The notes under the pieces were generated by a model. That model was not told where the DNA came from, did not search any database, and saw nothing but the letters and a program-made list of their open reading frames with translations. This document shows, piece by piece, positions 11,759-56,272 of a stretch of DNA of 64,000 nucleotides (positions within the stretch are counted from its first letter, which is position 1; each line of letters begins with the position of its first letter). The DNA is from a virus. Made by a program: the position numbers and the translations under genes. The stretch covers positions 30,632 to 94,631 of the IMG/VR virus record IMGVR_UViG_3300009093_000034, one strand, 5' to 3'.

Positions 11759-12010
11759 ATGCCACTAAAACCTCGAATCGGTGTCCACTACGAAAGCATC
11801 AGGCCACAAGAAACCGCTGAGATGGCCATTCAACGACTTAAGATCAGACCTAAGGATTGGGTCATTCTTCCTATCATCAAACTTTCTGGATCTCAAAAGA
11901 TCCTTCCACTTAAGTTCTCAGGTATCTCAGACTCGATGACTAAGATCGAAGGACCTGGTTTTATCATTGAAAAAATGTACGATCTTTTGACTAAATCCCA
12001 AATCTCTTAA
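11759..12010 (+). CDS. hypothetical protein
   Basis: 83 aa ORF in the + strand array. Confidence 0.4.
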   Translation: MPLKPRIGVHYESIRPQETAEMAIQRLKIRPKDWVILPIIKLSGSQKILPLKFSGISDSMTKIEGPGFIIEKMYDLLTKSQIS

Positions 12011-12021
12011 GATATTGTAAG
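12008..12021 (+). promoter_or_regulatory. conserved promoter-like motif TAAGATATTGTAAG (copy 1)
   Basis: Member of the 8-copy GATATTGTA motif family. It lies 10-15 nt upstream of an RBS GAGAGG and the start of a membrane-protein gene. Confidence 0.55.
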
Positions 12022-12028
12022 ACGAGAG

Positions 12029-12331
12029 GTGAACATGATCGGAAAACTGATTGGTGGTGTGGTCCTCGTGATCATCGCTGCTATTCTGTTCTGGCTGATT
12101 TGGGGTCTTCTGACCCCCTGGATCGTCAATTCCATCCCCGCTGGGGAGTGGAAAGCTTTCATGGGTGTGGTGGTCACCATCGTCGTGGGTTGGTTTGGAG
12201 GAATCGTTCTTCCTCTGGTCCCCCTGATTGCTGGTATCGTCTTCATCTTCAAGTTCTTCGGTCAGGCTTTTGCCTTGGCCACCGGTTCGAACATCGGTAA
12301 GTATCGTTACCGTGGTCGTCCCTACCAGTAA
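12029..12331 (+). CDS. GC-rich membrane protein (promoter-gene-terminator cassette)
   Basis: 100 aa with three hydrophobic helices. Codon usage is markedly GC-richer than the neighbours. The likely ATG is at 12035. Confidence 0.5.
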   Translation: MNMIGKLIGGVVLVIIAAILFWLIWGLLTPWIVNSIPAGEWKAFMGVVVTIVVGWFGGIVLPLVPLIAGIVFIFKFFGQAFALATGSNIGKYRYRGRPYQ

Positions 12332-12350
12332 GAACTTTCAGTTTTGTTAA

Positions 12351-12380
12351 AGATCCTCCCGAAAGGGAGGATTTTTTATT
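12351..12380 (+). terminator. rho-independent terminator
   Basis: ATCCTCCC-GAAA-GGGAGGAT hairpin followed by TTTTTTATT. Confidence 0.8.
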
Positions 12381-12398
12381 GTCTTCTAGATATACTAC

Positions 12399-12413: not shown

Positions 12414-12416
12414 ATC

Positions 12417-12641
12417 ATGGATGAACTTACTTGGGAACAGGTGAAAGACGGTAAGCACGAAGAGTGGAACGCCGTCCAGAAAGATCACGTTCAGGCTTAC
12501 ATCAAGAGACTCTCTGCTTTTCGTCTCGATGTGAAGTTTCGGAACCCGACCATTGAGGACTTTGAGTTCCTCGGTTCTTTGGGAGAAGCTAAGTCTTTGA
12601 CCCGAGAAGAACTGGCTAAGGTCGAACCCATCTCAAAGTAG
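12417..12641 (+). CDS. hypothetical protein (GC-rich cassette)
   Basis: 74 aa, with codon usage resembling the other motif-driven genes. Confidence 0.45.
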   Translation: MDELTWEQVKDGKHEEWNAVQKDHVQAYIKRLSAFRLDVKFRNPTIEDFEFLGSLGEAKSLTREELAKVEPISK

Positions 12642-15472: not shown

Positions 15473-15901
15473 ATGAGATTCACTCAAGAATGGTTTAGAA
15501 ACTCACCACAAGAAGAAGTCAAGCTATTGAATGGTGAGGAAGTTTGGGTCTGCGATTACAGATTCACCTCATTAGGCAACAAGCCTATTCGAGTCATTGT
15601 TCCGACTCTTTGTATCATCCACGTCAGTTTTTACGTGGACAAGTACTATCCTAGAGGAAACCCGATTCCTGTTGTAGAACTCAAGATCAAGAAGAACGGA
15701 AAAGATCTTAAGGTAGAAGACAACACAACGGCCTACAACAACTGGCTGAAGATCTTTAACGATGAACAAGAGTGCAGAGCTTTCTTCAGAGAACAAATGA
15801 CCGAAAACCTTGATGACCTAGACGAGTGGGAAAAAGGTCAGATAGAAAGAGCTGCAGAACTCAGAGCTACAATGCACAAGCTCCTAAAGGAACACGGATG
15901 A
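15473..15901 (+). CDS. hypothetical protein
   Basis: 142 aa. A 140-nt noncoding region containing inverted repeats lies upstream. Confidence 0.45.
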   Translation: MRFTQEWFRNSPQEEVKLLNGEEVWVCDYRFTSLGNKPIRVIVPTLCIIHVSFYVDKYYPRGNPIPVVELKIKKNGKDLKVEDNTTAYNNWLKIFNDEQECRAFFREQMTENLDDLDEWEKGQIERAAELRATMHKLLKEHG

Positions 15902-16698
15902 GCAACAAATTTAAGAACGATTCACTTGGAACAAGGATGAAGGAGAACTATGAGAACAGATCAAAGATCTTTCTCCCTCGTAGAACCTACATCATCCTTC
16001 GTGTGGATGGCAAAGCTTTTCACACATACACGCGTGGTCTATTAAGGCCTTTCGACCAGGGTTTGGTCGAAGACATGGACGCTACGGCAATCTACCTTTG
16101 CAAGAACATCATGGGTGCTCAGTTCGCCTATGTACAGTCTGACGAGATCTCTATTCTTCTCACAGACTTTGACACCAACGAGACCCAATCTTGGTTTGAC
16201 AACAATGTCCAGAAGCTTGCCTCAGTCTCTGCTTCTATGGCAACCTCAGCTTTCAACAAGGCCAGGATTTCAAGGTTCATGGCTACTACGACAGCAGTTC
16301 CTCTCGAGGATGCTGTGGACAAATTGACTTGGGCAGAGTTTGACTCTCGTGCCTTCCAGATCCCTCAGAAAGTTGAAGTAGAGAACTACTTCATCTGGCG
16401 TCAGCAGGATGCTACAAGAAACGCCATCTCCAGTGCTGCTCAATCTGTCTACTCCCACAAAGAACTTGAGGGAAAGTCTGGAGATGAGAAGCAAGAGATG
16501 ATGTTTCAGAGAGGCATCAACTTCAACGACTATGATCCTAAGTACAAAAGAGGTCGTTTGATCGTTACAGAAACTTTTCCAAGTATCTCAGTTACATCAG
16601 GTGACATGGCAATTAGAACAAAATGGGTCTCCACGGCCGCTCCTATCTTCACTCAAGATAGAGATGATCTCTCTGATAGAATTCCAGAAAGTAGGTAA
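15898..16698 (+). CDS. Thg1-like protein (tRNA-His guanylyltransferase family, 3'-5' nucleotidyltransferase)
   Basis: YIILRVDGKAFHTYT and YVQSDEISILL match the Thg1 hallmark blocks RIDGRxFHRF and QSDEYSF. The ATG at 15898 overlaps the upstream stop. Confidence 0.7.
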   Translation: MSNKFKNDSLGTRMKENYENRSKIFLPRRTYIILRVDGKAFHTYTRGLLRPFDQGLVEDMDATAIYLCKNIMGAQFAYVQSDEISILLTDFDTNETQSWFDNNVQKLASVSASMATSAFNKARISRFMATTTAVPLEDAVDKLTWAEFDSRAFQIPQKVEVENYFIWRQQDATRNAISSAAQSVYSHKELEGKSGDEKQEMMFQRGINFNDYDPKYKRGRLIVTETFPSISVTSGDMAIRTKWVSTAAPIFTQDRDDLSDRIPESR

Positions 16699-17035: not shown

Positions 17036-17269
17036 ATGAGCTGTTTAGTTTGTGGCCAAAATGCGTTTGATAGGATTGACATCACTATCCCTGGAGTTCC
17101 CAGAGTATATTTGAAATCCTCTAGAGGAGAAGTTGATCTTTCATTTTGCACGATCTGCGGAACTGTCAAAGCTGACGTGCCCTTCCCATCTACAACTAGA
17201 GCTGCTTTGTTAGAAGATAGATATAAAAAGATCTTAGAAAGAAACAGTGGTTTGTCCACAGATCCTTGA
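17036..17269 (+). CDS. zinc-ribbon protein
   Basis: CLVCGQ...CTICG Cys pairs. Confidence 0.4.
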   Translation: MSCLVCGQNAFDRIDITIPGVPRVYLKSSRGEVDLSFCTICGTVKADVPFPSTTRAALLEDRYKKILERNSGLSTDP

Positions 17270-17281
17270 GATATTGTAGTC
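17267..17281 (+). promoter_or_regulatory. conserved promoter-like motif TGAGATATTGTAGTC (copy 3)
   Basis: It lies 20 nt upstream of the ATG at 17301, with an AGGAGG RBS between. Confidence 0.55.
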
Positions 17282-17300: not shown

Positions 17301-17531
17301 ATGCCCGCTATTTCGGATATGGTCGAGAAGTACAAGGAACGAGTGATCGTTCTGGAACGGAAGATCTCGAACGCTGGTTACGGTGGATCCTCTGACTACA
17401 CGTCGGAGACTGAACGTGAGACCTTGATTGAGGTCATCAATGATCTCGAGGCCATGTCTGGTCTCGAAAGAACCATCTTCCCTGAACCCTTCAAGGAAGG
17501 TTGGCACGGAATGATTGGAGGTCCGAACTAA
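17301..17531 (+). CDS. hypothetical protein (GC-rich cassette)
   Basis: 76 aa with a strong RBS. Confidence 0.45.
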   Translation: MPAISDMVEKYKERVIVLERKISNAGYGGSSDYTSETERETLIEVINDLEAMSGLERTIFPEPFKEGWHGMIGGPN

Positions 17532-17916: not shown

Positions 17917-18375
17917 ATGTCCAAGACTCCTGCTGAACAACTTTCCATTGCGATCTCGATCGCTTCGAAGGGCCATGAAGGGGTCTTGGATAAGGGCGGC
18001 TCGCCCTACATCCTTCATCCTCTTCACGTGATGAACGCTGTTGCCCATCTTGGCTATCTGTGCATGGCTGCTGGTGTTCTTCATGACACTATTGAAGACA
18101 CTGACACCACTGCTCAGAATCTGCGTGACGCTGGTCTCGAAGAGAACGTGGTCATGACTGTCTTGGCCGTCTCTCGCCCTAATGGAGTTCTCTATGATGA
18201 CTTCATCAAGGCGATTGGAGCTACCCCCGGTATCGTAGGAACTTGGGCTCGGGCCATCAAGTTGGCTGACATCGAACACAACTCTACCGTCACTCGCCTC
18301 AAGGGTGTGGCTAAGAAGGACTTCGATCGTCTTCAGAAGTATGTCTATGCATACCAGTATCTGAAGGAAGTGTAA
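17917..18375 (+). CDS. small alarmone hydrolase (RelA/SpoT-type HD domain, (p)ppGpp hydrolase-like)
   Basis: KGHEGVLDKGGSPYILHPLHV...AAGVLHDTIEDT matches the SpoT HD-domain signature H..R.SGEPYI.HP...LLHDV.EDT. Confidence 0.65.
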   Translation: MSKTPAEQLSIAISIASKGHEGVLDKGGSPYILHPLHVMNAVAHLGYLCMAAGVLHDTIEDTDTTAQNLRDAGLEENVVMTVLAVSRPNGVLYDDFIKAIGATPGIVGTWARAIKLADIEHNSTVTRLKGVAKKDFDRLQKYVYAYQYLKEV

Positions 18376-21817: not shown

Positions 21818-21846
21818 CTCAGTTTACAAATTCTAACTAAGTTAAG

Positions 21847-24491: not shown

Positions 24492-24959
24492 TTGTACATG
24501 AGAAGAACCTATAGAATAGAAAAGTCTTTAGATATTGAGGAGTTCATTAGAATAACTAATGAATCGTTAACCATGAAACAAGCTGCTGTGAAACTTGGTC
24601 TTCATTTTAATAGTTTCAGAAGAATAGCAGTAAAGTATGGAGTTTATCGACCTAATCGTGGAGGCAAAGGAACCCATAAGCATAAAGAAAATGGGACTAC
24701 ACCTCTTACTGAAATTTTGGAAGGAAACCATCCATCATATCAAACGTTTAGATTAAAACTTAGATTAATTTCAGAAGGAATTTTTATTCCAGAATGTTCT
24801 GAATGCAAAAATACTCAATGGAATAAAAAAGAAATTCCTTTAGAGTTAGATCACATAGATGGAAATTCTTCTAACCATCTTTTAGACAACTTACGATTGT
24901 TATGTCCAAATTGTCATGCACAAACTGAGACGTATAGAGGAAAAAACAAAAAGTTTTGA
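24492..24959 (+). CDS. HNH homing endonuclease with N-terminal HTH
   Basis: CSECKN...LDHIDGNSSNHLLDNLRLLCPNCH is an HNH motif. Its AT-rich codon usage is distinct from the flanks. Confidence 0.7.
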   Translation: MYMRRTYRIEKSLDIEEFIRITNESLTMKQAAVKLGLHFNSFRRIAVKYGVYRPNRGGKGTHKHKENGTTPLTEILEGNHPSYQTFRLKLRLISEGIFIPECSECKNTQWNKKEIPLELDHIDGNSSNHLLDNLRLLCPNCHAQTETYRGKNKKF

Positions 24960-24969
24960 GATATTACTC
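24954..24969 (+). promoter_or_regulatory. promoter-like motif variant TTTTGAGATATTACTC (copy 4) upstream of tRNA
   Basis: Variant of the TGAGATATTGTAG family, ending about 10 nt before the tRNA 5' end. Confidence 0.45.
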
Positions 24970-24979: not shown

Positions 24980-25090
24980 GCGGGAGTGGAGAAATGGTGA
25001 GACTCAGCGGACTTATGAATGCATTCTAACTAGTGCATTGAATAAATCCGCTGCTTAAGAGGCGTGCCGGTTCGAGTCCGGTCTCCCGCA
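24980..25090 (+). tRNA. tRNA-like gene (111 nt) with long variable arm and apparent 28-nt insertion in the anticodon loop; candidate anticodon UAU
   Basis: 7-bp acceptor GCGGGAG/CTCCCGC with discriminator A. U8, A14, GG and A21 are present in the D-arm. The T-arm is GCCGG-TTCGAGT-CCGGT. The anticodon stem GCGGA/UCCGC encloses 35 nt instead of 7. The variable arm is GCTT-AAG-AGGC. Confidence 0.55.
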
Positions 25091-25591: not shown

Positions 25592-25619
25592 GAAAAAAGT
25601 TTCTCTTGAAAAGAGAGGC

Positions 25620-42600: not shown

Positions 42601-44080
42601 GAGTTACTGCTCCGTTTGAGATCGTTGTAGAAAGAGATCCGGCAGAGTTTGTTACATCTCCAGTTAAGGCAGGAAACTGAGCAGCCTGTAAGGTTCCTGA
42701 TACATCAGAGCTAAGAGAGATAGACAAGAGGGTCTTAACTTGAGAAGGCGTTAATGCGGCTGGAGTGGCTGGAGATCCCGTGTTGTTTCCGATGATAGAG
42801 TTGGCTGCCAGGTTTGCCATCTTGGAAAGACCAACTGCTCCAGCAGAGATGGTAACAGACAATGAGCCTGATGTTGTGGTAGCATCTCCTGTTAAGGCCG
42901 GAAATTGAGCAGCTTGAAGAGTTCCAGAGACATCTGTAGAAAGAGAGATCGCTAGTAAGGTTTTAACTTGAGTTGAGGTCAACTCAGATGGTGCTGCTGA
43001 AGAACCTGAAACGTTGCCTAAGATCGATGAGTTGGAGATGTTAGCCAACATTGACAAGGTGACTTGACTAGCTCCGATTGAGAACTGAGTTCCAGTAAGT
43101 GTTAAACCAGAGCCTGCTGTGTAACTAGGAACAGCGGAGAACTGGACGAAAGTGATGTTTGTGGTTCCTACGGTCAAACCTGAAGTAGGTGTTGTACAAA
43201 CCCATCCTGTTGAAGCATTTATTGTACCAGAAAGAACTAGAGAGAAAGCACCGAAGAACTCCGTAGGAGCATCCATACCAACAGATCTTGTAAGAACTAC
43301 AAAGAGTCCAGCTCCACCGGCGTTGGTGACTGTATAAAGACCATTGTGAGGTTGATTTCCTCCTGTCTCGTTCTTAACTAGAACAACATCGCCTAACGAA
43401 AGAACAACGCCATCTATGGTTAAGGTTCCACTTCCGTTCATGGTGATCGTAGCACCGACTCCTGAGGTTCCGTTGGAGTAGGTGTTGGAAGGAAGAGCCG
43501 TTGTTGTGGCTACTTTAGCAGAAGATTTGACAGACAAGCCTTGAGCTGTCATGTCAACGTAGTTCTTGGTAGCGATGTCTTGAGCAGCAGAAGGATCAAC
43601 GACTTGAGCTCGGCCAGATCCATCTCTTAGAACTGGTTGGTTTACTGTTGCTGAAGAGGTTCCTACTACCACCCAAGTTCCACCAGCTGATAAGAACTTA
43701 TGACTAGAGAAATCTCCAGAGGCTGGAGCTGGAACTAGACCAGCTGTTCCTCCAGAACCTGAGTCTCCAACCAAGATAGAAAGGTAAGCTGTGATGGCTG
43801 AGATCGCTGTAGCGACAGGTATTGCTGGAGACCCTGTGACGTTGGCTAGAACAGTGTGAGACGCTATGTTTCCTAGACCACCTGCTGCTAAAGCATCTTC
43901 TAGGTCTGGGATATCTGAGATCTGAGGATAAGGTTGGTTGTCTCTCTTGATCCCGTTCTCAGGATCAAACTCCATGGACCTACCATTCTGAGAAATGGTG
44001 ATCTTAGCTCCGGCCGTGATCTGTCCGGTTGTTTTGAGAGTACCGGTAAGGATGGATGGAACTAGGAGAGGATTTGCCAT
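39662..44080 (-). CDS. large tail fibre protein (1472 aa) with internal tandem repeats
   Basis: GDSGSGGTxGxVPAPASGD..KFLSAxG(T/V)W occurs twice. About 75-aa repeats (SQVKTLLxISLSxDVSGTLQAAQFPALTGD) occur about 2.5 times. It also has a CBM-like module and a C1q-like C-terminus. Confidence 0.75.
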   Translation of the reverse strand: MANPLLVPSILTGTLKTTGQITAGAKITISQNGRSMEFDPENGIKRDNQPYPQISDIPDLEDALAAGGLGNIASHTVLANVTGSPAIPVATAISAITAYLSILVGDSGSGGTAGLVPAPASGDFSSHKFLSAGGTWVVVGTSSATVNQPVLRDGSGRAQVVDPSAAQDIATKNYVDMTAQGLSVKSSAKVATTTALPSNTYSNGTSGVGATITMNGSGTLTIDGVVLSLGDVVLVKNETGGNQPHNGLYTVTNAGGAGLFVVLTRSVGMDAPTEFFGAFSLVLSGTINASTGWVCTTPTSGLTVGTTNITFVQFSAVPSYTAGSGLTLTGTQFSIGASQVTLSMLANISNSSILGNVSGSSAAPSELTSTQVKTLLAISLSTDVSGTLQAAQFPALTGDATTTSGSLSVTISAGAVGLSKMANLAANSIIGNNTGSPATPAALTPSQVKTLLSISLSSDVSGTLQAAQFPALTGDVTNSAGSLSTTISNGAVTLTKMASIPNNAILSNFSGSSAIPQANSPSSVMVHLPTFIGDSGSGGTQGVVPAPASGDTAAGKFLSASGVFANVVIANVTGLSSALSGLAAIDDATFASNSTTQPPSQASVKEAFRISSLPLWQSNVTYTQYAIINRLGVAYSSNANGNLNHDPSTDTTHANWTPVGGSASSTGTVGTNAVTTKRVVYITSSGTLQHASNDTETTATAIGIAFNGGASAATIVWQASGSIMVGFGSGMTPGTFYYLGTNGQVITDPNTITIGSFRVAIGIAVNATDLLITIGEPVQVITGTTALVGLGRTTLWTGSVGSLPGNLLQLNGAAVGRSFYSQLFSLWGTSYGVGDGSTTFNIPDLSSLSVKDSTGTVISFWTVQAFPDTVLLNNPSVIFTNPSSGLNYISNGTFESDISGWATYNDGASATPVDGTGGTAVLTLARNGTTPLIGTGDGLITKDAANRQGQGISYDFTLDPAVLGSTLGLSFYFKTSTNYAAGDILAYLYDKTNSNFIPISINSLPTASAGTYFSATFWPASTSTSYRLVFHVATTNALAWTMNIDQVTITPFIPVLGAAIGGEYAGQMSFQNVPGTIDLANSHVWRKGDLLEGVIAITLSGAVTGQINVLFPSGLTSTFRPVGYAIGTHSSSRYGGDLSPGLLGGGIGFNLEYRYPFGGNGATAWTATTPITWASTDVITVYFQAKISQWSSNVNLASDFTEYASNDGSGGTTTNTTFTTGQKTGQDGSAFVAVVSTDFSNGFSTKYAVDFAREIQSTDQLILEINDNGIGWGPLYAFMEFAVQGNARYGVQVRRDTTNKKRALVEIGNSGIYPGSTYGTNNGSAWSAFSTVKWRVRKVSNGNMAEQPSMVRAEYISVPSTATNVVLNFQTKVEDTHSAVTTGASWKFVCPVAGLYLVETNSYTTGTAGNCQIFKNGSRWRYFGTTPVTATSGSSNITLRLVVGDQIWLQNDSAASQPSDVNVWIQITRIGS
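42520..43110 (-). repeat. tandem ~225-nt coding repeats within tail fibre gene
   Basis: Protein residues ~325-520 form about 2.5 near-identical units. The repeat is visible at nucleotide level. Confidence 0.6.
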
Positions 44081-44104
44081 AACTTTGATAATTAGTCAAA
44101 TTTT

Positions 44105-44119
44105 TGAGATATTTTAGAC
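44105..44119 (+). promoter_or_regulatory. promoter-like motif TGAGATATTTTAGAC (copy 7)
   Basis: 17 nt upstream of the ATG at 44136, with an AAGAGG RBS between. It lies in the divergent region opposite the fibre operon. Confidence 0.5.
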
Positions 44120-44135
44120 GAAAGAGGTACGCTAA

Positions 44136-44471: not shown

Positions 44472-44815
44472 TTCAATCAGAAGCTGACCTTTGCCGGTTT
44501 ATCCGTTTCGGTCAGATGCCTTCTTGGCCTGCTGGACGCTTTCAAACCTATTTTGAAAGCAATAATCTTTTGATCGTAACTTACCATCCTTACCATCCTC
44601 AGGCAAGTTCAGATCTTATTAAAGTACTATCTATCGAGTATTTTCCAAGCGAGTTTGCTTCTGGAATCCTTGGTGGTTGTCGTCTCTCTGTTCATGACAA
44701 AGCCAGTGCTATGATCTTCTTGACTCAAGTGAATTCAATGCAAGAGCCTCTTTACCTGGAAGAAGAAATCAAGCGTCTTAAGGACATCTCTGATCTTTTT
44801 GAGAGTGTAAAATGA
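44468..44815 (+). CDS. hypothetical protein (tandem paralog B)
   Basis: 115 aa, paralogous to 44136..44471. Confidence 0.45.
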   Translation: MIQSEADLCRFIRFGQMPSWPAGRFQTYFESNNLLIVTYHPYHPQASSDLIKVLSIEYFPSEFASGILGGCRLSVHDKASAMIFLTQVNSMQEPLYLEEEIKRLKDISDLFESVK

Positions 44816-45591
44816 GCTCAGAACTTGCTAACCTCGCAGTCTATAACGCTGGCATGAAGAAGTCGATGATGGACAAGATGTTCTTCATCGACAAAGTCGA
44901 TGCCCATGTTTTCATCGACTATGGCTGTGCCGACGGAACTCTCATTCACTTTCTTCGAGGTCTCTTTCCTGAGTTCATCTACTATGGCTTTGACATCTCT
45001 GAAGACATGATCCAGGAAGCCAAGAAGAAGAACCCTGAGATCGCTCACAACTTCACCTCCGACTGGAGTTACATCTCTGACAGAATTCCTTCTCTTAGAG
45101 GAGAGGGAAAGATCTCTGTTCTCTTGTCCTCGATCATCCACGAGGTCTACAGCTACGGAACCGGAAACGATGTTGAGACTTTCTGGGATCGAATCTTCAA
45201 TGATGGTTTTGACTACATCGTTATCAGAGACATGATGCCCAGCACGAGTATGAACCGCCAGGCTGACATCAACGACGTAGCCAAGATCTACCGTAAGGCT
45301 GATAAAGAAAAGCTCTACGAGTTCCAGCAGACTTGGGGTTCTATCGAGAACAACAAGAGCATGATCCACTGGTTCCTCAAGTATCGTTACGACGACAACT
45401 GGGAACGTGAAGTCAAAGAGAACTATCTCCCTTTGAATCGGGAACAGTTCTTGAGCATGCTTCCAGACAACTACGACATCACCTTTCATGAGCACTTCAT
45501 TCTTCCTTACCTCCTCACTCAGGTTCAGAAAGACTTTGGAGTCGTGATCAAGGATAACACTCACTTGAAATTGATCTTAAGGAAAGCATGA
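44812..45591 (+). CDS. class I SAM-dependent methyltransferase
   Basis: VFIDYGCADGT is motif I. An acidic FDISEDM forms motif II. SSIIHEV forms motif IV. Confidence 0.6.
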   Translation: MSSELANLAVYNAGMKKSMMDKMFFIDKVDAHVFIDYGCADGTLIHFLRGLFPEFIYYGFDISEDMIQEAKKKNPEIAHNFTSDWSYISDRIPSLRGEGKISVLLSSIIHEVYSYGTGNDVETFWDRIFNDGFDYIVIRDMMPSTSMNRQADINDVAKIYRKADKEKLYEFQQTWGSIENNKSMIHWFLKYRYDDNWEREVKENYLPLNREQFLSMLPDNYDITFHEHFILPYLLTQVQKDFGVVIKDNTHLKLILRKA

Positions 45592-46142: not shown

Positions 46143-46574
46143 ATGGTTACAAGAAAAATTTGGCGTTTTGAAAACGAAAAAGGTGAAGGTCCTTATAACG
46201 GACACCCTAGTCCAAAATTTCTCTTTAAGTCTACTCATGACGGAGAGTCTAAGAAACATCCTCATCCCAAGTATGACTTTAAGAACTCTAAGATCATTAG
46301 ATTCTTAAACAACATGAACACTAAAGATCACTTTAGATGTGGATTTTCTACAAAGAAACAGGCATTTGAGTGGTTTACTGAACGAGAAAGAAAGATCTTG
46401 AAAAATAATGGCTACAATTTAGTCCGTAAAAATGCAGATAGAATCTTTAAAGGAAACAAACAAGTTATCTATATTCGTGAAGGTCATTTAGAAGAACTTG
46501 TTAAAGTTTTTCGTTTTGATCATTCTGTTCCAAAAACATTAACATCAATATATTCAATCAGGAGCTCAACATGA
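46143..46574 (+). CDS. hypothetical basic protein
   Basis: ATG at 46143 just after the upstream stop, in frame with the longer tracked ORF. Confidence 0.4.
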   Translation: MVTRKIWRFENEKGEGPYNGHPSPKFLFKSTHDGESKKHPHPKYDFKNSKIIRFLNNMNTKDHFRCGFSTKKQAFEWFTERERKILKNNGYNLVRKNADRIFKGNKQVIYIREGHLEELVKVFRFDHSVPKTLTSIYSIRSST

Positions 46575-47122
46575 TGCTACAGACCATTGAAGGAAACCTA
46601 ATCACTCTCGCCCTTGAAGGCAAGTTCGACATGATCGCTCATGGTTGTAACTGCTTCCATACCATGGGAGGAGGGATCGCCAAGTCTATTTCTGAGACTT
46701 TTCCTGAAGCTCTTCAAGCCGACAGGGTCTTTGGAGAAAGAGGAAACGTTTGGAAGCTTGGTCAGGCTTCCAAGGCTACGATCTTTCGTGGAGACACTCA
46801 GTTTGTTGTGGTGAACCTCTATACTCAGTTTGAGCCTGGAGCCAACTTTGAATACTTGGCCTTGATCAACTCTTTAGAGCATCTCAAGAAATACTTGGAT
46901 ATTCATCTCTACGATCGAGTGTCCGATAAACCTTACCGTCTTGGTTTTCCCAAGATCGGAGCTGGTATTGGTGGTGGAGATTGGGACCAGATCTACCAGA
47001 TCATTGACCAGTCTCTTGACGAGAAGTATCGTGAGGAACAGGGAGTCGAAATCACGGTTGTCGAGTTCATTCCTCCTAATCCTCTTCAGGAGATCGTTGT
47101 TCGTTCTCTTCAGAAGAAGTAA
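46571..47122 (+). CDS. macrodomain protein (Poa1-like ADP-ribose processing)
   Basis: MIAHGCNCFHTMGGGIAKSI matches the Poa1/macro signature iaHqcNc.g.MGaGIA. Confidence 0.6.
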   Translation: MMLQTIEGNLITLALEGKFDMIAHGCNCFHTMGGGIAKSISETFPEALQADRVFGERGNVWKLGQASKATIFRGDTQFVVVNLYTQFEPGANFEYLALINSLEHLKKYLDIHLYDRVSDKPYRLGFPKIGAGIGGGDWDQIYQIIDQSLDEKYREEQGVEITVVEFIPPNPLQEIVVRSLQKK

Positions 47123-49542: not shown

Positions 49543-50130
49543 ATGGGAAAGACTGCAGTTTTTACATTTGCAAGAATGAATCCTCCAACTTTAGGTCATG
49601 AACTATTGCTCTCAGAACTTGTCATTCAAGCCTTAGAAAAGAAAGCTGATCCATTTCTTTTCCTTTCCCACACAGAAGACTCTAAGAAAAACCCTATTCC
49701 TTACGGGAACAAAGTTAAATTTGTCAAAGAACTTTTCAAAGATAAGTTCCCTGAACTCCATATCTACTCAGGAGAGAGCTGCAAGAACCCTAGAGAAGCT
49801 CTCTCTTTCCTTTACAATCTTGACGATTACTCTGAGGTGATTGGAGTCTTTGGTAGTGATCGAGTGGATGACATGTACGATCTTATGACCAGAGGAAACG
49901 GAAAAGAAGGTCTTTCATCTGGTTTCTATCTCTTCAACAAACTCTCTGTCACATCAGCCGGAGAACGAGACCCAGAACAAGATGGAGTTGAAGGTGTTTC
50001 TGCCACTAAACTCCGTGAGTACGCTCTAGAAAATGACTTTGAGTCCTTCAAAAAAGGTCTTCCAGAGGCTGACGAAACACTAATTAATAACATCTTTCTA
50101 ACGACCCAACGAGGACTTGAACGTGCCTGA
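49543..50130 (+). CDS. nicotinamide/nicotinate mononucleotide adenylyltransferase-like (HxGH nucleotidyltransferase)
   Basis: FARMNPPTLGHELL is the (T/H)xGH motif. VSATKLRE is the ISSTxIR motif of the NadD/NadM family. Confidence 0.6.
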   Translation: MGKTAVFTFARMNPPTLGHELLLSELVIQALEKKADPFLFLSHTEDSKKNPIPYGNKVKFVKELFKDKFPELHIYSGESCKNPREALSFLYNLDDYSEVIGVFGSDRVDDMYDLMTRGNGKEGLSSGFYLFNKLSVTSAGERDPEQDGVEGVSATKLREYALENDFESFKKGLPEADETLINNIFLTTQRGLERA

Positions 50131-52261
50131 AAAAACTATCCCTAACTCTGGAGCGGTCTCTTCTGATCGAATCCTTCAAAAGAACGTTTTTCCAACCATT
50201 GAGGTCTTTGTTGATAAGATCTTGAACTTGGTTCCTCACCAGAAGTATGGCGTGATCGGATCTACTGGAAAGAAACAAGACAACGGAGATATCGACCTAG
50301 GCCTTGAAACCTCTTTGACCTTAGATCAAGTGAGTGCTGTCCTAAACGACCTTGACGTTGATCATGTGGTTCAAAAAGGACTTAATGAGATCAATTGTCG
50401 ATTTCCTCAGTATGAGAACGGAGCTCACAAGTTAGATCTTTGGGTTCAGGTTGACTTGATGTTAGGAAATTTGGATTGGTTGGAGTTCGTGTTCTACGTG
50501 GACAAGGACACCAAGTACAAGCCGATGGCTAGAACTGGTCTTCTCTTCGGTCTACTCAAAGTAGCTGCTATGCCTATCGCTGGCCAAAACACACCTCAAG
50601 GTCCATCTAATGAAGTTTGGTCTTTTGCTCCTACTCGTGGTATGTTCACCAAGGTTGGAACCAAAAGAACTAACAGAAAAGGTGAAGAAGTCATCGATTG
50701 GACCAACTCGTCTTCTTATACCCCTGACCCAAACAAGTTTTGTGAGATCGCCTTTGAACAAGCTAGGCGCGCTGTAAAACCCTCTGAACTAGAAACTTCC
50801 TTTGAAGGTTGTTGGAAGGTTATGACAGACGTTTTCTCTAACAACCCTACTCTCTTAGGTCAACTCGCAGAGTATGTCATGAACTTCTGTAAGGACAAGG
50901 GAGTCTCACCGGTTCCTGAGCTTGAACAATGGACCAAAGCCTTGAAGGTTCAAGAGTCTATTGAACAACTTCTTGAATACGTTGAGTACATCAAGGGTCA
51001 CAAAAACTCCTCTGGAGAATCTGCTCCTTGGGTCATCAAACAACATAACACTGGAAAGATCCTCTCAAGCCACTCCTCTGAGGCCAAGGCTAAGGCTCAC
51101 CTCGGTCAGATGGAGATGCACAAACATCTGGAAGAAAAGTATGACACTAGGGATGACGGAAGTGAGCTCGCTAGTTTCCTTCTTGATCCTCGTGTCATCC
51201 AAGAACTTCGTAGATCATCAGAGCCTTTGAGAACTTTGGTGGTCGACGGACTCAGACAATTTGGTATCTCTGTCAAAGACTCTACTAAGAGTGAAGACTC
51301 CGACTTTATCTACCCAGACGTAGGTATTGAAGGCGGAGTGATGTATCCTAATGGAAAACTTCAGATCATCATTGACGTTGATCAAGTTGAGGAAATTCTT
51401 GCTGGTCTTAGGTTTGATGGTCTAGATCAATACAAGAAGTTCATTAGGTATCTAGCAGCTGTCTACGCTCATGAAAAGATTCATGATGCCCAGTACAAAG
51501 CATCAGGTGAAGAATATACTTTGAGAAAAAAAGATCTCTTATCTCTCACAGGAGACGACAGAGATTATCTCTCGAACGAAAGAGAGATTCATGCTCAGGC
51601 TTCCAGTGCAGTAGATGAATGGATAGCCGAAGGTTATGCTCCAGAACAAATTAGAAAATGGTTAACTAACACAGTTGAGTTGATCCGTCATGCTAAAGAT
51701 GCTCCTGCTATTATGGACTATTGGAAAGGTTTTGGCATCTACAAGAGTGAAGAAAGTCAAAAGGTCTGGCGACAGTTCTTGAAGCAGGTTTATGACTTTA
51801 CTCAACAAAAGATGATCAAAGAATCCACAGATAGTGACAAGATCGCAATGTTCATCAACAGGCCTTCTGAAGCCATCAAAGAAGGAAAGTTCTATTGGCA
51901 AGATCCTACCAACGATGAGATCCACGGTGGAAAGATCATTAGTGTTGATGCTCCTGACTTCATCGTTGAGGTCGAGTGTGAACTCTGTGGAAAGACTTGT
52001 TACACAGACAACTTCAGAGACTCACAAGATAAAGAATGGTGGATCAAAGCTCAAAAGCTCTTAGAAGGTGTTTCTCAAAGTGCTATTCAAGCTTATCAAC
52101 AGCAAAAGAACTCCCCTGAGAAACATAAGGTAGATATTGTCTCAACTGAGATGGCAGCTCCAGAGAACGGGGTGAACTTCTTGGCTGGAGGTGGAAGACC
52201 TCAAGATCTTCAACCTGCCACGGTTAGGTATGACTCAAATGGAAAACTCAGAAACGAATGA
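50117..52261 (+). CDS. Pol-beta-superfamily nucleotidyltransferase domain protein with C-terminal HExxH region (714 aa)
   Basis: YGVIGSTGKKQDNGDIDLGLE is the hG[GS]...D.D NTase signature. YAHEKIHDAQ is an HExxH motif. The start is non-ATG (TTG at 50117 or GTG at 50123). Confidence 0.5.
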   Translation: MNVPEKTIPNSGAVSSDRILQKNVFPTIEVFVDKILNLVPHQKYGVIGSTGKKQDNGDIDLGLETSLTLDQVSAVLNDLDVDHVVQKGLNEINCRFPQYENGAHKLDLWVQVDLMLGNLDWLEFVFYVDKDTKYKPMARTGLLFGLLKVAAMPIAGQNTPQGPSNEVWSFAPTRGMFTKVGTKRTNRKGEEVIDWTNSSSYTPDPNKFCEIAFEQARRAVKPSELETSFEGCWKVMTDVFSNNPTLLGQLAEYVMNFCKDKGVSPVPELEQWTKALKVQESIEQLLEYVEYIKGHKNSSGESAPWVIKQHNTGKILSSHSSEAKAKAHLGQMEMHKHLEEKYDTRDDGSELASFLLDPRVIQELRRSSEPLRTLVVDGLRQFGISVKDSTKSEDSDFIYPDVGIEGGVMYPNGKLQIIIDVDQVEEILAGLRFDGLDQYKKFIRYLAAVYAHEKIHDAQYKASGEEYTLRKKDLLSLTGDDRDYLSNEREIHAQASSAVDEWIAEGYAPEQIRKWLTNTVELIRHAKDAPAIMDYWKGFGIYKSEESQKVWRQFLKQVYDFTQQKMIKESTDSDKIAMFINRPSEAIKEGKFYWQDPTNDEIHGGKIISVDAPDFIVEVECELCGKTCYTDNFRDSQDKEWWIKAQKLLEGVSQSAIQAYQQQKNSPEKHKVDIVSTEMAAPENGVNFLAGGGRPQDLQPATVRYDSNGKLRNE

Positions 52262-52800
52262 GCATGTCCAACTGGTTAAGAGGAAATGCTTTTCAAGAGA
52301 AAGACGAATACTATACGCCTAAAATTTTAGTAGATATAATTGTTCCTTATGTGCCTGCTGGATCAACAGTATGGCTCCCATTTGATACTGAAGACTCCGA
52401 GTTTGTTCATGCGTTTAAGCACACACATGAGGTAGTCTTCTCTCACATCTGGGAAGGAAAAGACTTCTTTGATTTCATTCCAGACAAAGTTGACTACGTC
52501 ATCAGTAATCCTCCCTATTCTAGAAAGATGGATGTTTTGAAGAGACTCTATGACTTAGATTTTCCTTTCGCTATGGTTCTCCCTCTTCCTTGTTTAAACT
52601 ATCAAGAGGTTGGAAAGTTCTTTTTAGATCGAGAACTTCAGCTCTTGATCCCAGACAAGAAAGTCTCTTTTAATGGAAACACAGCGTCTTTCAACAGTAC
52701 CTTCTTTTGTCACAAACTTCTACCTTCCAACTTGATGTTTGCTCACTTAGAACACAACAATACTGGGAAGAACTTTGTTGGAAGTAGAATGATCTCTTAA
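52258..52800 (+). CDS. putative DNA N6-adenine methyltransferase (small phage Dam-like)
   Basis: YYTP and VISNPPYS are (D/N)PPY catalytic motifs. Confidence 0.5.
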   Translation: MSMSNWLRGNAFQEKDEYYTPKILVDIIVPYVPAGSTVWLPFDTEDSEFVHAFKHTHEVVFSHIWEGKDFFDFIPDKVDYVISNPPYSRKMDVLKRLYDLDFPFAMVLPLPCLNYQEVGKFFLDRELQLLIPDKKVSFNGNTASFNSTFFCHKLLPSNLMFAHLEHNNTGKNFVGSRMIS

Positions 52801-52831
52801 ATTTCTAAGATATATTATCAGTAGGTTCAAT

Positions 52832-54043
52832 ATGCCAAACACAGACAAAAATCACTCCACTCACATTGAAGACTCTGTCCTACAAGGTCCGAAGAAGATC
52901 CAAATGGCGATCCTCTTCTTTGAAGGTCTTCTCAACAACTCGTCTAGTCTAACCAAGAGTCTCAAGATCGACGGAGCTCCCGTTGTCTTGGCAGGTTCCA
53001 ACGCTGTTGGGATCACCAGGCCTTTTGTTGCAGCCAAGTCCTTCTTGAACAACGGTAAGGTCGCGACCAACGAGGATGAGATCCAAGAGCTCTTTGGAGA
53101 TCGTCCTGGTCTTGCTTCCAAGATGAAGAAGCTTCTTGAGCTCCTTCCAGAACTTCAGATCCCTGAAGGAGAGATTTGGAGAGGAGACTTGCTCTTCTCT
53201 AAAGACACTCTTCAAAACGAAGGTGGAAACAACTACTTCCACCCTAACACTCTTGTTTATGCTCCAAACTCCCAATCTGAGATTGATGCTGTCAATCAAG
53301 CAGACATCGGAATCATCTGGCACACCTACTACACAGGGGAGACACTTACGTCTCTCACAGCTCATGCCGATCTCGATGTCTACCGATTGAAACCTTCTAC
53401 ATCTGTTTTTACTCTGAGTCCTCTCTTCAAACAAGAAGAGCTCTCCATTGAGGAAACCTTCTTGATCAAGAGTACATTGGCAACAGTCAAGGAAAGATTC
53501 AGAGGTCTGATGGCTGGTTCTGTTGGAGCTACGTACGCCGAAGTTCTTAAGAACAAGGTGTTTCTTGAACACCTCACAACCTACCTCAATCACTTGATCA
53601 GACAAGGAAAAGGAATCTACCAGTTCTCTCCTACGGATCTTGCTTACAGCTGGATCCCTCAACGATATGAGCAAAAGATCGAAGGTCTTAAGACTGAGAA
53701 GTTCAAGACCAAGTGGAAGAACGAACGAGACTCCTACATCGATGCTGCTAGGTTCATTGAACCTGTCCTTGGTCAGATGATCTCCTTGATGAAAGCCCTT
53801 GTTCACGTCAAGGCTTTGTTCATCCAAAACTTCAACTCTTTGAAAGATCTTCCTTTCATGACCTTCTACAAAAAGAAGATCGATGATCGGGCTGTGTTGG
53901 TCAAGACTGCTCATGAAGGCTTTGTCATCACGGACAAGAAAGGAAACTCTTTTAAGCTTGTTGACCGAGAAGAGTTCACGAAGATCAACTTTGGAGTTGA
54001 TACTGTTCGCGGATGGAAGGAAGAGTCGAAACAAGTCCAATGA
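52832..54043 (+). CDS. putative nucleotidyltransferase/ligase-like protein
   Basis: LKIDGAPV is a KxDG motif-I-like block. The C-terminal HEGFVITDKKGNSFKLVD resembles ligase motifs IV/V. The assignment is tentative because the motif spacing is unusually long. Confidence 0.4.
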   Translation: MPNTDKNHSTHIEDSVLQGPKKIQMAILFFEGLLNNSSSLTKSLKIDGAPVVLAGSNAVGITRPFVAAKSFLNNGKVATNEDEIQELFGDRPGLASKMKKLLELLPELQIPEGEIWRGDLLFSKDTLQNEGGNNYFHPNTLVYAPNSQSEIDAVNQADIGIIWHTYYTGETLTSLTAHADLDVYRLKPSTSVFTLSPLFKQEELSIEETFLIKSTLATVKERFRGLMAGSVGATYAEVLKNKVFLEHLTTYLNHLIRQGKGIYQFSPTDLAYSWIPQRYEQKIEGLKTEKFKTKWKNERDSYIDAARFIEPVLGQMISLMKALVHVKALFIQNFNSLKDLPFMTFYKKKIDDRAVLVKTAHEGFVITDKKGNSFKLVDREEFTKINFGVDTVRGWKEESKQVQ

Positions 54044-54053
54044 CTAATTGGGC

Positions 54054-56240
54054 ATGAGCACTAACAGCCTCCAGTTCTTAGGACCATGGGATCCCACCTC
54101 TGGTGCCTTTCCAATCATTCCCAGCAACGCAACGAGTGCTTACTACTTCGTTGACCATGCTGGTACTTTTAACTCTTTCAACTTTGAAGTAGGAGATTGG
54201 CTTCTCTTCATAGAAGATTCTGTTGGAAACGGAACGTGGTACCAAACAACTGGTGGTGTCATCCAGATCGCTCTAAGTCATAGCGATTTCCATGGACACT
54301 CTTACACTCACGGACCTGTTGATCCTGTAGGCCAAACCATAGGCGGAGTTGTTCTTCCTAACCTACAAGTTGAGATCAAGCAAGCTCTTGGAACCTTGTT
54401 CCAAAATCCTTCTGGAAACCCAGTTGTTTTCACGTATGATCCTGTAGCTAACACAGTTGTTGCTACGGTCAAACACGATGACACTCTAGATATAACAAAT
54501 GCAGGACAACTTAGAGTTGTTTCTTCTGGCGGTTCTTCTCAACCTAGTGAGATCACACCTGACGACATCGTTGGTTTTGATGCAGCTGTCATTGCTGCTG
54601 TCGGTGCCAACCAATTTGCTTCTCCCTCCTCTAAAGCAGTTCAGTTCGCTTTTGACCCAAATACTAGTTCGGTCTCTGCTGATGTCAAGATCGACGGCAG
54701 CTCAATCACCAAGAACAATCTTGGACAACTCCAGTCTAATCCTGTAGGAGCTCAACTTGCTGCTCCTCAACAGATCATAGGCCTTCCAACCTCTGGAAAT
54801 TATGACGATGGAGCCGAGAACTTGGCTAACATGAAGATCGTCGATGCTGTTGCTACATTGAACAGATTGATCAAAGTCATGGAAGCTGCACTAGATGTTG
54901 CTGAAGCTGCTCCTTCTTTGAACCTTGGGGACTACACCTTAACCTTTGCAGGAACCACAGTTACCGCTAAAGCAGTTTCTGATGGAACTGACATTCAAGT
55001 TTACACGATAGCTCCTACTGTTCCTCAAGTTGGTCCATTCAAGAGAGTCAATGGAAACCTCAATGTTTTCTTAGACAGTACTCTTGTAGGAACTCTTGTT
55101 ATTGACACAGCTGACTTAACCGGTCAAGTCAATGGGGACTTGACCGTTGTCCATGACACTGACCTTTACGAAGACATTCCTTTCTTCTTCGGAAGATACA
55201 AGGTCTTGGATGCTTTGGTCACCATCCTAGATTCCTTAACTGAAGGGACTCACGAGATCATCCTTCAGAGTACCGGAGATAACCAGTCTGTTTCGAACGT
55301 CTTCAATTTTGCTGATACAAACGTTACAGGTTCCATTGATGAAGAGAGTTCAACTATCATCACCTTCGGTGCTGGTGAACATCTCTCCGGAGTTCCAGTT
55401 CTTTCTACTCCAAACGTTTTGGTCGGGCCTCTTTTCGTAGATAACGTAGCTAAGCAGTTCTATCAAGGAACAGACATTGTTGAGCTGGCAAGCCCATCAC
55501 TTCACTTTGACGTAGCTACTCCTACTTCTGAACCTACAGAGGATAACTTCACCGTTCTTGAGACCAACTCTTTGAGTGGAACTCTTCCTGGTTCCTTCTT
55601 CAGTTCTGTCTCTTTGGACTTCACGATCTTTACAATAGGACACAAGAATGTAGGAACTCAGAATGTCACCATTCCTAAGAGATGGGACGCTTCTATTGTT
55701 CTTGAAACTTCAGGAAATCCAATAGCAAGAATTGATTCAGGAAGCGGAGATTTTGATTTCACTGGTTCAGACTATGATTCTACAGTAAGTCTTGTGGACA
55801 ACACAGAACTTCAGATTGAGAACAGAAAGATCAAGTTCCCTACTCAAGACTATACCACTTTGAGTGGACCAGATTACTCTGGTATCGTCCAAGGTTCTGC
55901 TTTTAGATATTGTACCTTGGTAGAAACTTCAGGGGTCACTAGTGCTACAGGTTTTGACTTGGATCTCAGAGGACTCACCACCATCAATGGATCTAATCCT
56001 CTCAAGGTTCTCATCAAGGTTGGTTCCAACCCAGTTGTAGATGCTACACTTCCGTACAACTCAGGAAACACTTGGCAAGATGGAGTTCCTGGTTGGGACC
56101 AAACTGCCACAGGACTTCCTGCTAATGTTAGAAGAATCACCTTCGGTTCTCACACCTTGACCGGTCCTCTTTACATCAAGGTCGCATACAAGGGAGCAGA
56201 TTACGAGTTAACTGTTCCTACTTCTTGGATCTTTATCTAA
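54054..56240 (+). CDS. structural protein, fibre/baseplate-like
   Basis: 729 aa from the ATG at 54054; the tracked TTG at 54048 would add 2 aa. It is Thr/Ser/Gly/Val-rich and beta-rich, with no enzymatic motifs. Confidence 0.5.
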   Translation: MSTNSLQFLGPWDPTSGAFPIIPSNATSAYYFVDHAGTFNSFNFEVGDWLLFIEDSVGNGTWYQTTGGVIQIALSHSDFHGHSYTHGPVDPVGQTIGGVVLPNLQVEIKQALGTLFQNPSGNPVVFTYDPVANTVVATVKHDDTLDITNAGQLRVVSSGGSSQPSEITPDDIVGFDAAVIAAVGANQFASPSSKAVQFAFDPNTSSVSADVKIDGSSITKNNLGQLQSNPVGAQLAAPQQIIGLPTSGNYDDGAENLANMKIVDAVATLNRLIKVMEAALDVAEAAPSLNLGDYTLTFAGTTVTAKAVSDGTDIQVYTIAPTVPQVGPFKRVNGNLNVFLDSTLVGTLVIDTADLTGQVNGDLTVVHDTDLYEDIPFFFGRYKVLDALVTILDSLTEGTHEIILQSTGDNQSVSNVFNFADTNVTGSIDEESSTIITFGAGEHLSGVPVLSTPNVLVGPLFVDNVAKQFYQGTDIVELASPSLHFDVATPTSEPTEDNFTVLETNSLSGTLPGSFFSSVSLDFTIFTIGHKNVGTQNVTIPKRWDASIVLETSGNPIARIDSGSGDFDFTGSDYDSTVSLVDNTELQIENRKIKFPTQDYTTLSGPDYSGIVQGSAFRYCTLVETSGVTSATGFDLDLRGLTTINGSNPLKVLIKVGSNPVVDATLPYNSGNTWQDGVPGWDQTATGLPANVRRITFGSHTLTGPLYIKVAYKGADYELTVPTSWIFI

Positions 56241-56257
56241 CAATTGTAAAATCTTTT

Positions 56258-56272
56258 GAGATATTGTAGATA
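56258..56272 (+). promoter_or_regulatory. conserved promoter-like motif TGAGATATTGTAGAT (copy 8), part of palindrome TGAGATAT-TGTAG-ATATCTCA
   Basis: 16 nt upstream of the ATG at 56288, with an AGGAGAG RBS. Confidence 0.55.

Follow-up and report, generated by a model that had tools for sequence, protein, structure and literature searches.

In the 64,000-nt stretch of viral DNA analysed here (positions 30,632 to 94,631 of IMG/VR record IMGVR_UViG_3300009093_000034; hereafter the window), a 13-nt motif, TGAGATATTGTAG, recurs in the gaps between genes and very probably functions as a promoter. Its occurrence is non-random, its position and orientation relative to genes and its internal geometry are regular, and a homologous motif is present in related phages. 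We propose that it would form the core of a promoter class that starts the non-structural transcription units of the source, an uncultured jumbo phage, and that the units served would include host-takeover and RNA-repair genes, small membrane proteins, a tRNA and a small RNA. Such a promoter would be an extended -10 element, with TG at -15/-14, the hexamer GATATT at -12 to -7 and a GTAG discriminator, and transcription would begin about 7 nt past the hexamer, at a C/purine step 2-3 nt beyond the motif. Contact with a -35 element would be dispensable, a TTGACA-like hexamer being present in half of the copies only. The most likely reader would be the host RNA polymerase with its primary sigma factor, and a possible phage helper factor would account for the rigidity of the 13 bases.

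For a phage known from metagenomes, without a close cultured relative, a promoter motif is the only handle on the gene programme. This one splits the window into transcription units and sets accessory and RNA-repair genes apart from structural and lysis genes, which have a second motif (CTAAyTA). It also exposed non-coding genes missed by gene callers, namely an insert-bearing tRNA and a candidate small RNA, and it supplies a concrete candidate for a sigma/promoter pair. As a new instance of a known promoter type, it leaves general knowledge of promoters unchanged.

The window is part of a 305,853-bp metagenomic contig (ENA ERZ27252312, k141_4393686). We read it together with 8.8 kb of upstream and 8.0 kb of downstream DNA, both reached by looking up genes near the window ends, for a total of 80.8 kb or 26% of the genome. 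A megablast search with 20 kb of the window against 50,697 phage records gave no match. A contig from another sequencing run (L005; Logan SRR6056503), 12,182 nt long, is 100% identical to window positions 49891-62072, so at least two datasets contain this phage genotype; with zero differences over the 12,182 nt, a polymorphism test between the two was uninformative.

Copies of the motif and their placement

Exact TGAGATATTGTAG occurs four times (12399, 17267, 25810 and 56257), always on the + strand, and not once in 100 shuffles. Near-copies are found at 25620 and 44105 (one mismatch each) and at 12008 (two mismatches), and the good copies come to ten in all, eight within the window and two just outside it on the same contig. 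The eight window sites had been reported in an earlier note made from the sequence alone, and all are real, with small corrections: the variant placed at 24954 spans 24957-24969, and the copy placed at 56258 begins at 56257. The ten copies are as follows.

12008-12020, + strand: TAAGATATTGTAA, two mismatches; gene 11759-12010 stops at its TAA
12399-12411, + strand: exact copy, 22 nt past terminator 12349-12376; ATG at 12417, predicted leader 3 nt
17267-17279, + strand: exact copy; open reading frame (ORF) 17036-17269 stops at its TGA
24957-24969, + strand: variant TGAGATATTACTC, with the first nine bases (TGAGATATT) intact and the last four differing
25620-25632, + strand: TGAGATATTGTAT, abutting hairpin 25597-25619
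25810-25822, + strand: exact copy, 16 nt past the stem of terminator 25766-25793, preceding the PARP-like gene 25850-27061
44105-44117, + strand: TGAGATATTTTAG, in the 55-nt divergent gap 44081-44135, with TTGATA 17 nt upstream of GATATT
56257-56269, + strand: exact copy, forming the left arm and loop of inverted repeat 56257-56277
L003:6008, outside the window: TGAGATATTGAAT
L004:7406-7418, minus strand of that locus, outside the window: GGAGATATTGTAT

In the 80.8 kb, matches with at most one mismatch number 7 against 0.15 expected, and those with at most two number 13 against 2.6. Four matches with one or two mismatches fall within genes (34381, 55903, 48781 on the minus strand and L003:4766 on the minus strand), a number that fits chance. 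That at 55903-55915 (+ strand; TTAGATATTGTAC), inside gene 54048-56240, may be an internal promoter or a chance match, the chance expectation at its stringency being 2.6. All ten good copies are intergenic, lie on the + strand of the window phage and point in the same direction as the next gene. The 9-mer GATATTGTA is the most enriched of all non-coding 9-mers, and six of its seven window copies lie in the 5.5% of window DNA that is non-coding; the equal frequency within genes that the earlier note named as speaking against its proposal is not what we find. Chance origin is ruled out by the shuffles, and a packaging, replication or restriction signal by the strictly intergenic, co-oriented placement.

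Three copies (12399, 25620 and 25810) have an adjacent stem-loop or terminator, which the other copies lack. The two intrinsic terminators concerned, both of them strong, are given below.

12349-12376, + strand: intrinsic terminator just upstream of copy 12399
25766-25793, + strand: intrinsic terminator between copies 25620 and 25810

Because they lie 16-22 nt past these terminators, copies 12399 and 25810 stand outside any upstream transcript, barring readthrough, and the 22 and 16 nt that separate terminator from motif leave no space for another promoter. At copy 44105 a promoter must exist, since the 55-nt gap separates divergent operons.

What follows the copies is varied. Copy 12008, with TTGACT 18 nt upstream of its GATATT, precedes a gene for a small membrane protein (ATG at 12035), and the copy, this gene and terminator 12349-12376 make up a promoter-gene-terminator unit. 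Copy 17267 precedes 17301-17531 and a block with an HD-domain gene (17917-18375). Copy 44105 heads a + strand block from 44136 with a methyltransferase (44812-45591) and a Macro domain gene (46571-47122), while copy 56257 precedes a small membrane-protein gene (56288-56488) and an Rnl1-type RNA ligase (56490-57587). At copy 24957, the TGA of the motif is the stop codon of the HNH ORF 24498-24959, a tRNA (24980-25090) starts 10 nt downstream, and 25139-25591, the gene with the highest GC content at third codon positions (GC3), follows copy and tRNA. Behind copy 25620 lie about 171 nt without an ORF (25635-25805), closed by terminator 25766-25793 and a T-run; this unit is a candidate small RNA (fold z -2.7), and a search of Rfam gave no match to it. 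The motif thus heads gene blocks and a tRNA, as had been proposed, and in addition one small non-coding unit. The distance of 6-30 nt to a start codon or tRNA stated in the earlier note fits seven of the eight window sites (gaps of 5-27 nt, and 10 nt for the tRNA). It does not fit 25620, which has no ORF or tRNA behind it, only the terminator-ended 171-nt unit.

The tRNA itself is unusual. Its variable arm is long, and its anticodon loop contains an insert of 28-31 nt, much too small to be a group I intron; the Rfam tRNA model scores it at 42 bits, and ARAGORN, run with introns permitted, reports it as tRNA-Ile(TAT). A default tRNA scan and an Rfam run at gathering thresholds both missed 24980-25090, the default scan because of the insert in the anticodon loop.

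Anatomy of the motif and the predicted start site

Information content is high at exactly 13 positions and at background on both flanks, and since conservation stops at the edges of this block, the copies are not duplicated segments. The block consists of T-15 and G-14, A-13, the hexamer GATATT (-12 to -7) and the discriminator GTAG. GATATT is present in ten of ten copies, with A-11 and T-7 invariant and G rather than T at -12. A-11 and T-7 are required by every sigma-70-type factor. TG occupies -15/-14 in eight of the ten copies, the exceptions being TA (12008) and GG (64555, outside the window), and at three copies the first three bases of the motif (TGA or TAA) are the stop codon of the upstream gene.

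No column of the -35 region is conserved, in agreement with the earlier note, yet there is a weak TTGACA-like excess. The best match to TTGACA at 16-19 nt spacing averages 3.5 of 6 bases against 2.8 in composition-matched shuffles (p ~0.01), and it reaches 4 or 5 of 6 in five copies. The SPO1-type -35, CGTTAGA, is absent, its best match being 2-4 of 7 bases at every copy. Taken together, the TG, the GATATT with A-11 and T-7 and the lack of a conserved -35 bear out the extended -10 geometry that had been suggested.

Counting from the start of the motif, offset 14 is C in seven of ten copies, and offset 15, the expected +1, is a purine in nine of ten. Start codons lie at offsets 15, 18, 27, 31, 31, 34 and 40 and the tRNA at 23, with none before 15. 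The start codon at offset 15 opens an uncalled 78-codon ORF outside the window and that at offset 18 is the ATG at 12417, which has no Shine-Dalgarno sequence; both genes would have leaderless or near-leaderless messages. Starts of this kind, at predicted +1 to +4 and without a Shine-Dalgarno sequence, are found in the window (12414-12419), in its downstream flank (L004 7403-7401, minus strand) and in three related phages (L127 17587, L129 20601 and L130 18908), which suggests that some mRNAs of this phage family have little or no leader.

The inverted repeat noted earlier at the eighth window copy can be read straight from the sequence as TGAGATAT-TGTAG-ATATCTCA (56257-56277). It is perfect, with arms of 8+8 nt and a 5-nt loop, and it is found at that copy only.

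A homologous motif in related phages

Homologues of the DNA polymerase define a family of large metagenomic phages. The closest relative (L125/L126, PolA 72% identical) has GGAGATATTGGAGATATTAGAC about 50 nt upstream of the polymerase gene and also carries a tandem GGAGATATTGGAGATATTAG. In four further relatives (L127-L130, PolA 52-55% identical), the top two intergenic k-mers are GTATATTA and ACTAATTA, the same in four of four. TATATT(A/G) is non-coding in 23 of its 47 copies in the relatives. Their motif, G-TATATT-A, follows terminators and, in several genomes, stands in front of matching genes: those for the primase, the polymerase and a metallophosphatase, the one after ribonucleotide reductase, and one for a 405-aa protein, before which it reads TATATTGTA, as in the window. 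In three relatives an ATG lies at predicted +1 or +4 behind it. In this form, -13 is G in 16 of 21 copies; TG is missing from -15/-14, and a -35 excess is not seen either (p 0.35). Because the relatives carry G-TATATT-A at matching positions, we read the window motif as the local version of a family-wide -10-only element. The relatives' form may also occur in the window, as a weak candidate.

52811-52816, + strand: possible variant promoter AAGATATATTATC (TATATT), 15 nt before the DUF6267 gene 52832-54043

Searches along other routes were less productive. A scan of IMG/VR for TGAGATATTGTAGA returned at least 119 stretches with one copy each, which are chance matches, and no relative was found thereby; the exception, L063, has a second core copy on the opposite strand. 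The sole IMG/VR relative of the capsid gene (L001, 61% identity) has only two genes in common with the window phage and the motif is absent from it. Searches of the same database for relatives of the PARP-like gene found none, and the relatives of the RNA ligase in Joint Genome Institute metagenomes belong to unrelated phages and are uninformative.

A phage sigma factor and a second motif

The earlier note had pointed to one ORF as a phage sigma factor, and the predicted fold of its product agrees.

58920-59594, + strand: 224-aa protein with a sigma-70-family fold (domain 2, linker, domain 4)

The AlphaFold2 model (predicted local distance difference test score 73) has two helical domains joined by a disordered linker. 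Among the 50 best PDB matches listed by Foldseek, almost all are sigma factors (E from 6e-4, probability ~1), and the matches include models of SigD, SigH, AlgU, sigma-E, sigma-A and WhiG. At the sequence level, the protein matches PHROG 1740 ('sigma factor') weakly (E 3.7e-5), has no match in Pfam or PDB sequence searches, so that it was recognized through its fold, and gave none in a tblastn search of the 50,697 phage records at E 1e-5. An alignment of the sigma family (A2) with T4 gp55 by hhalign covered 45 columns and was not significant (E 0.013, probability 3%). The protein is conserved in every relative, with 41-47% identity between two clades. On its modelled structure, it is a sigma-70-family protein of the domain 2 + domain 4 type, with a helix-turn-helix in domain 4 and no domain 3. 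Recognition of the TG in an extended -10 normally falls to domain 3.

In four relatives, the sigma gene has a promoter of canonical type, TTGATA/TTGCCT-N18-TATAAT or TTGACT-N18-TATGTT, in the regions listed here.

L127 3545-3681: canonical promoter region of the sigma gene
L128 5641-5830: the same
L129 4938-5119: the same
L130 5064-5182: the same

Given this host-type promoter in the relatives, the sigma would be made early by the host polymerase and would have to redirect that polymerase to a later class. A canonical promoter was also looked for at the sigma gene of the window and none was found; here a conserved structured RNA precedes the gene, and copy 56257 is 2.6 kb upstream of it. Elsewhere in the window, TTGACC-N17-TATTAT stands before the DNA polymerase gene (62115-62143, minus strand).

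The structured RNA occupies about 365 nt of non-coding DNA upstream of the sigma gene (58554-58919) and is conserved in the closest relative (L125 3427-3792, minus strand). Its stems show fully compensatory changes between the two, for example TCTCTCA..TGAGAGA against CCACCTA..TAGGTGG, and it holds a conserved AAAGGAGGTTAA and a tRNA-like element (58752-58825) with a 2-base 'anticodon'. Rfam has no match to it even at E<=1.

A second motif, CTAAyTA, usually preceded by A, is non-coding in 44 of its 65 copies across the window phage and four relatives, and has no upstream or -35 partner. In the window, it precedes start codons by 6-21 nt at 3488, 5569, 11759, 21847 (endolysin-like) and, on the minus strand, 37013 and 44080 (tail fibre). 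The capsid gene also has it upstream, and a copy outside the window stands in front of ribonucleotide reductase. One version, TGACTAATTAG, has stop codons in all three frames.

3465-3472, 5546-5553, 7142-7149, 11745-11752 and 21833-21840, + strand: CTAAyTA copies
37059-37066, minus strand: CTAAyTA copy
44088-44095, minus strand: (GA)CTAATTAT, with the ATG of the 1472-aa tail-fibre gene 7 nt downstream

The 55-nt gap 44081-44135 contains both motifs, one per strand, and nearly all sizeable intergenic gaps hold either a TGAGATATTGTAG-type or a CTAAyTA motif. CTAAyTA is probably a late promoter class. The 224-aa sigma is a candidate reader of the one motif or the other.

Which sigma factor would read the motif

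Our tentative preference is that the host primary sigma reads the TGAGATATTGTAG motif, maybe together with a phage factor, and that the motif would represent an early or middle class, with CTAAyTA before the structural and lysis genes as the late class, served by the phage sigma. We favour the host factor because TG stands at its canonical position and the modelled phage sigma has no domain 3, because of the weak TTGACA-like excess at 16-19 nt, and because the gene content is of an early type. Economy argues the same way, as the single known phage sigma then goes to the late motif, as in T4, and so does the location of the window sigma gene, for which no canonical promoter was found, 2.6 kb downstream of copy 56257.

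Several points weigh against this assignment. The primary sigma prefers T at -12, where the motif has an invariant G, and no known primary-sigma contact accounts for the near-invariant -13 and -6 to -3. The motif of the distant relatives, with neither TG nor -35 excess (p 0.35), makes an unaided host holoenzyme less plausible there. The 81 of 306 kb read leave room for further sigma or phage polymerase genes. Finally, promoter function, start site, timing class and reading sigma are all deduced from sequence. Within the 81 kb, no multisubunit or single-subunit phage polymerase genes were detected, and Pfam and PDB sequence searches with the large window proteins gave no matches to polymerase subunits.

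It is also possible, though we would put less weight on it, that the motif is a -10-only middle promoter read by a phage sigma, either the 224-aa protein or another one encoded in the 306-kb genome. The host polymerase would first make the sigma, and the sigma would then redirect the polymerase to TGAGATATTGTAG, by analogy with the promoters of T4 gp55 or SPO1 gp28/gp34. Thirteen nearly invariant contiguous bases without a -35 are typical of phage-sigma promoters; the invariant G at -12 and the absence of both TG and -35 from the relatives' form count on the same side, and GATATT is the -10 of SPO1 late promoters in the form quoted in PMC3601020. The 224-aa protein has a sigma fold and is conserved in every relative, where the canonical TTGAYA-N18-TATAAT before its gene marks it as an early product needing a target class. 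Moreover, the motif drives replication genes in the relatives, a classic middle class, and the motifs of the clades differ (GAGATATT against G-TATATT) in parallel with the divergence of the sigma (41-47% identity), which includes residues aligned to region 2.4; this co-variation, however, comes from two clades only. The protein fits the motif poorly in other ways, as its domain 4 helix-turn-helix has no -35 partner there and domain 3, which would be needed for the TG, is absent. CTAAyTA is at least as good a target, and the window sigma gene seemingly lies inside a unit driven by the TGAGATATTGTAG motif itself. The SPO1 -35 is missing, and the 224-aa sigma has no sequence relative among the 50,697 phage records.

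The pieces could be joined into a three-tier programme, a combination that we regard as somewhat doubtful. Canonical host promoters would make the new, very divergent domain 2 + 4 sigma, this sigma or a partner would read TGAGATATTGTAG as a rigid -10-only promoter with G at -12, and CTAAyTA would drive the late genes; the same joint claim would take in G-TATATT-A in the relatives and several leaderless or near-leaderless mRNAs. If true, this would amount to a new sigma-promoter pair with an unusual mode of recognition, in which no -35 is used though the sigma keeps domain 4.

Base composition and alternative roles of the motif

The earlier note described the genes downstream of the motif as higher in GC and different in codon usage, and suggested that they might be horizontally acquired. 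The first of these statements is right for third codon positions and wrong for positions 1+2. GC3 is 0.53 in genes within 1.5 kb downstream of the motif and 0.43 in the rest (p 8e-5), the comparison that the note had called for. It falls through successive bins of downstream distance (0.61, 0.52, 0.46, 0.45 and 0.40; Spearman rho -0.53, p 7e-7, permutation p<0.0005), while GC at positions 1+2 is trendless (rho 0.00). Since GC3 falls downstream of the motif, the motif marks the heads of units. Codon usage does differ, through a shift away from A-ending and a gain in G-ending codons. The capsid gene, too, turns from A-ending codons (overall rho 0.55) but does not gain G-ending ones (CTG, CGG, CCG and GCG), and among GC-ending codons alone the correlation with it is rho 0.12. 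Codon optimization as the cause of the gradient is unconfirmed, given this value of 0.12 and the absence of a gradient in the relatives (rho -0.11 in their replication loci).

A reading compatible with promoter function, and in our view improbable, is that the motif serves chiefly as a conserved junction in mobile promoter-gene cassettes, like morons or the promoter early stem-loop (PeSL) elements, a short patch of homology for the insertion or exchange of GC-richer foreign genes. Genes just behind the motif do have GC3 of 0.54-0.69 against 0.43 elsewhere, with an excess that takes in the G-ending codons (CTG, CGG, CCG and GCG) avoided by the capsid gene. Two segments, the self-contained 12008-12376 (copy, gene and terminator 12349-12376) and the ORF-less 25620-25805, each have a putative promoter and a terminator of their own, as a moron would; behind the remaining copies lie multi-gene blocks. 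At three copies a hairpin or terminator accompanies the putative promoter, an arrangement like that of the PeSLs of T4-type phages (PMC2839356, PMC4122927). Set against this, the flanks of the copies are unrelated and only 13 bases are shared, where PeSLs have about 100 bp and T4 recombination patches tens of bases, and GC at positions 1+2 shows no trend. The RNA-ligase block is in the same place in the closest relative, the homologous motif drives core replication genes in the relatives, and a search for insertions or deletions with the motif at their edge found none; in the closest relative, L125, the RNA ligase is retained and the contig stops short of the site. Horizontal acquisition is therefore unsupported by a GC excess confined to third positions and by 13 shared bases between unrelated flanks. 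The HNH homing-endonuclease-like ORF 24498-24959, directly upstream of the tRNA (GC 0.32, GC3 0.20), is the sole clearly foreign-looking segment of the region.

Very unlikely, finally, is that the motif acts after transcription, as a signal for RNA processing or translation in 5' leaders, or as the operator of a phage regulator, overlapping promoters unrelated to it: it is always close to start codons, copy 8 sits in a perfect 8+8 inverted repeat as operators often do, and the tandem GGAGATATTGGAGATATTAG in L125/L126 could be paired binding sites, but a translation role is disfavoured because the distance from motif to start codon varies more than 10-fold (ATG spacing 2-27 nt) and two copies have no downstream ORF, two copies lie too close behind terminators for any other promoter, the motif is asymmetric and strictly oriented with one of ten copies palindromic, and its -10-like hexamer has the correct start-site context.

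Other features of the window

The genes of the window are tightly packed and mainly on the + strand; the blocks 33264-44080 and 59664-61972 are encoded on the minus strand. They encode a distant gp23-like capsid protein, the 1472-aa tail-fibre protein, a family-A DNA polymerase and a GroEL-like chaperonin, as well as PARP-like, Macro domain, HD-domain and Thg1-like proteins and an Rnl1-type RNA ligase. The genes for ADP-ribosylation and RNA repair are scattered over the motif-driven blocks.

15826-16698: Thg1-like tRNA-His guanylyltransferase
17917-18375: HD domain gene
25850-27061: PARP-like gene
46571-47122: Macro domain gene
56490-57587: Rnl1 RNA ligase

Just past the window end, 3' of a motif copy, L004 5506-7140 encodes FliM-like, FliN-like and NUDIX proteins, and in the relatives CheY-like response regulators lie beside the polymerase gene (L127 10030-10437, L128 12119-13004, L129 12115-12498 and L130 12099-12497). 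The FliM/FliN-like and CheY-like genes hint that host motility is manipulated; no close relative of the FliM-like gene turned up among 185,579 reference genomes. The GroEL-like chaperonin (62166-63854) is 42-46% identical to GroELs of many bacterial phyla, and its best-ranked matches include many Spirochaetota (Treponema, Sphaerochaeta, Brevinematales and Borreliella), which may be a weak hint to the host.

GATC occurs 632 times in the whole window, about once per 100 nt (observed/expected 1.10 on a trinucleotide basis), and GATCAAG has 49 copies against 17 of its reverse complement. We rejected both as signals: the trinucleotide expectation covers the GATC count, and the pattern looks like codon and strand bias.

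Comparison with known systems

Like phiKZ and AR9, the window phage is a jumbo phage with a long, rigid, AT-rich -10-like consensus and no -35, and the G-TATATTA of its relatives holds the same TATATTA core. Phages of the phiKZ type need no host-type promoters, whereas the family of the window phage encodes a sigma and uses canonical host-type promoters. The AR9 early promoter, AAATATATATTAT-N6-G, is read by a virion multisubunit polymerase (PMC5312081). The window motif reads GAGATATTG instead, and no polymerase subunit genes were detected in 81 of the 306 kb.

With the late promoters of T4, which depend on gp55, the motif shares a short, highly conserved -10-only element, and the window phage has a gp23-like capsid protein. 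The T4 element, however, is TATAAATA and the window motif TGAGATATTGTAG, and the match to the gp55 profile is not significant; a T4-late-like role suits CTAAyTA better. The late promoters of SPO1 (gp33/gp34), quoted in PMC3601020 as CGTTAGA-N17-19-GATATT, have the identical hexamer as quoted, and SPO1 likewise encodes its own sigma factors. They differ in that CGTTAGA is absent here, the genes driven here are not late structural genes and the 224-aa sigma has no sequence similarity to any of the 50,697 phage records.

The PeSLs of T4-type phages are strong promoters before small accessory genes, often behind a stem-loop terminator, and a role in gene shuffling has been proposed for them; they have full consensus -35 and -10 elements and an AT-rich upstream region, with about 100 bp conserved (PMC2839356, PMC4122927). 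Here, too, repeated phage promoters would precede accessory genes, and some copies are paired with terminators, but conservation spans only 13 bp, a -35 consensus is lacking and recombination breakpoints were not observed.

The element would work like the extended -10 promoter, TGnTATAAT, of bacterial sigma-70-type holoenzymes. The window motif is far more rigid, with G at -12 in ten of ten copies and -13 and -6 to -3 nearly invariant, and the relatives' form has no TG. What the two have in common is the TG one base before the hexamer, A-11 and T-7, a dispensable -35, a pyrimidine/purine step at the expected start and placement at the heads of operons.

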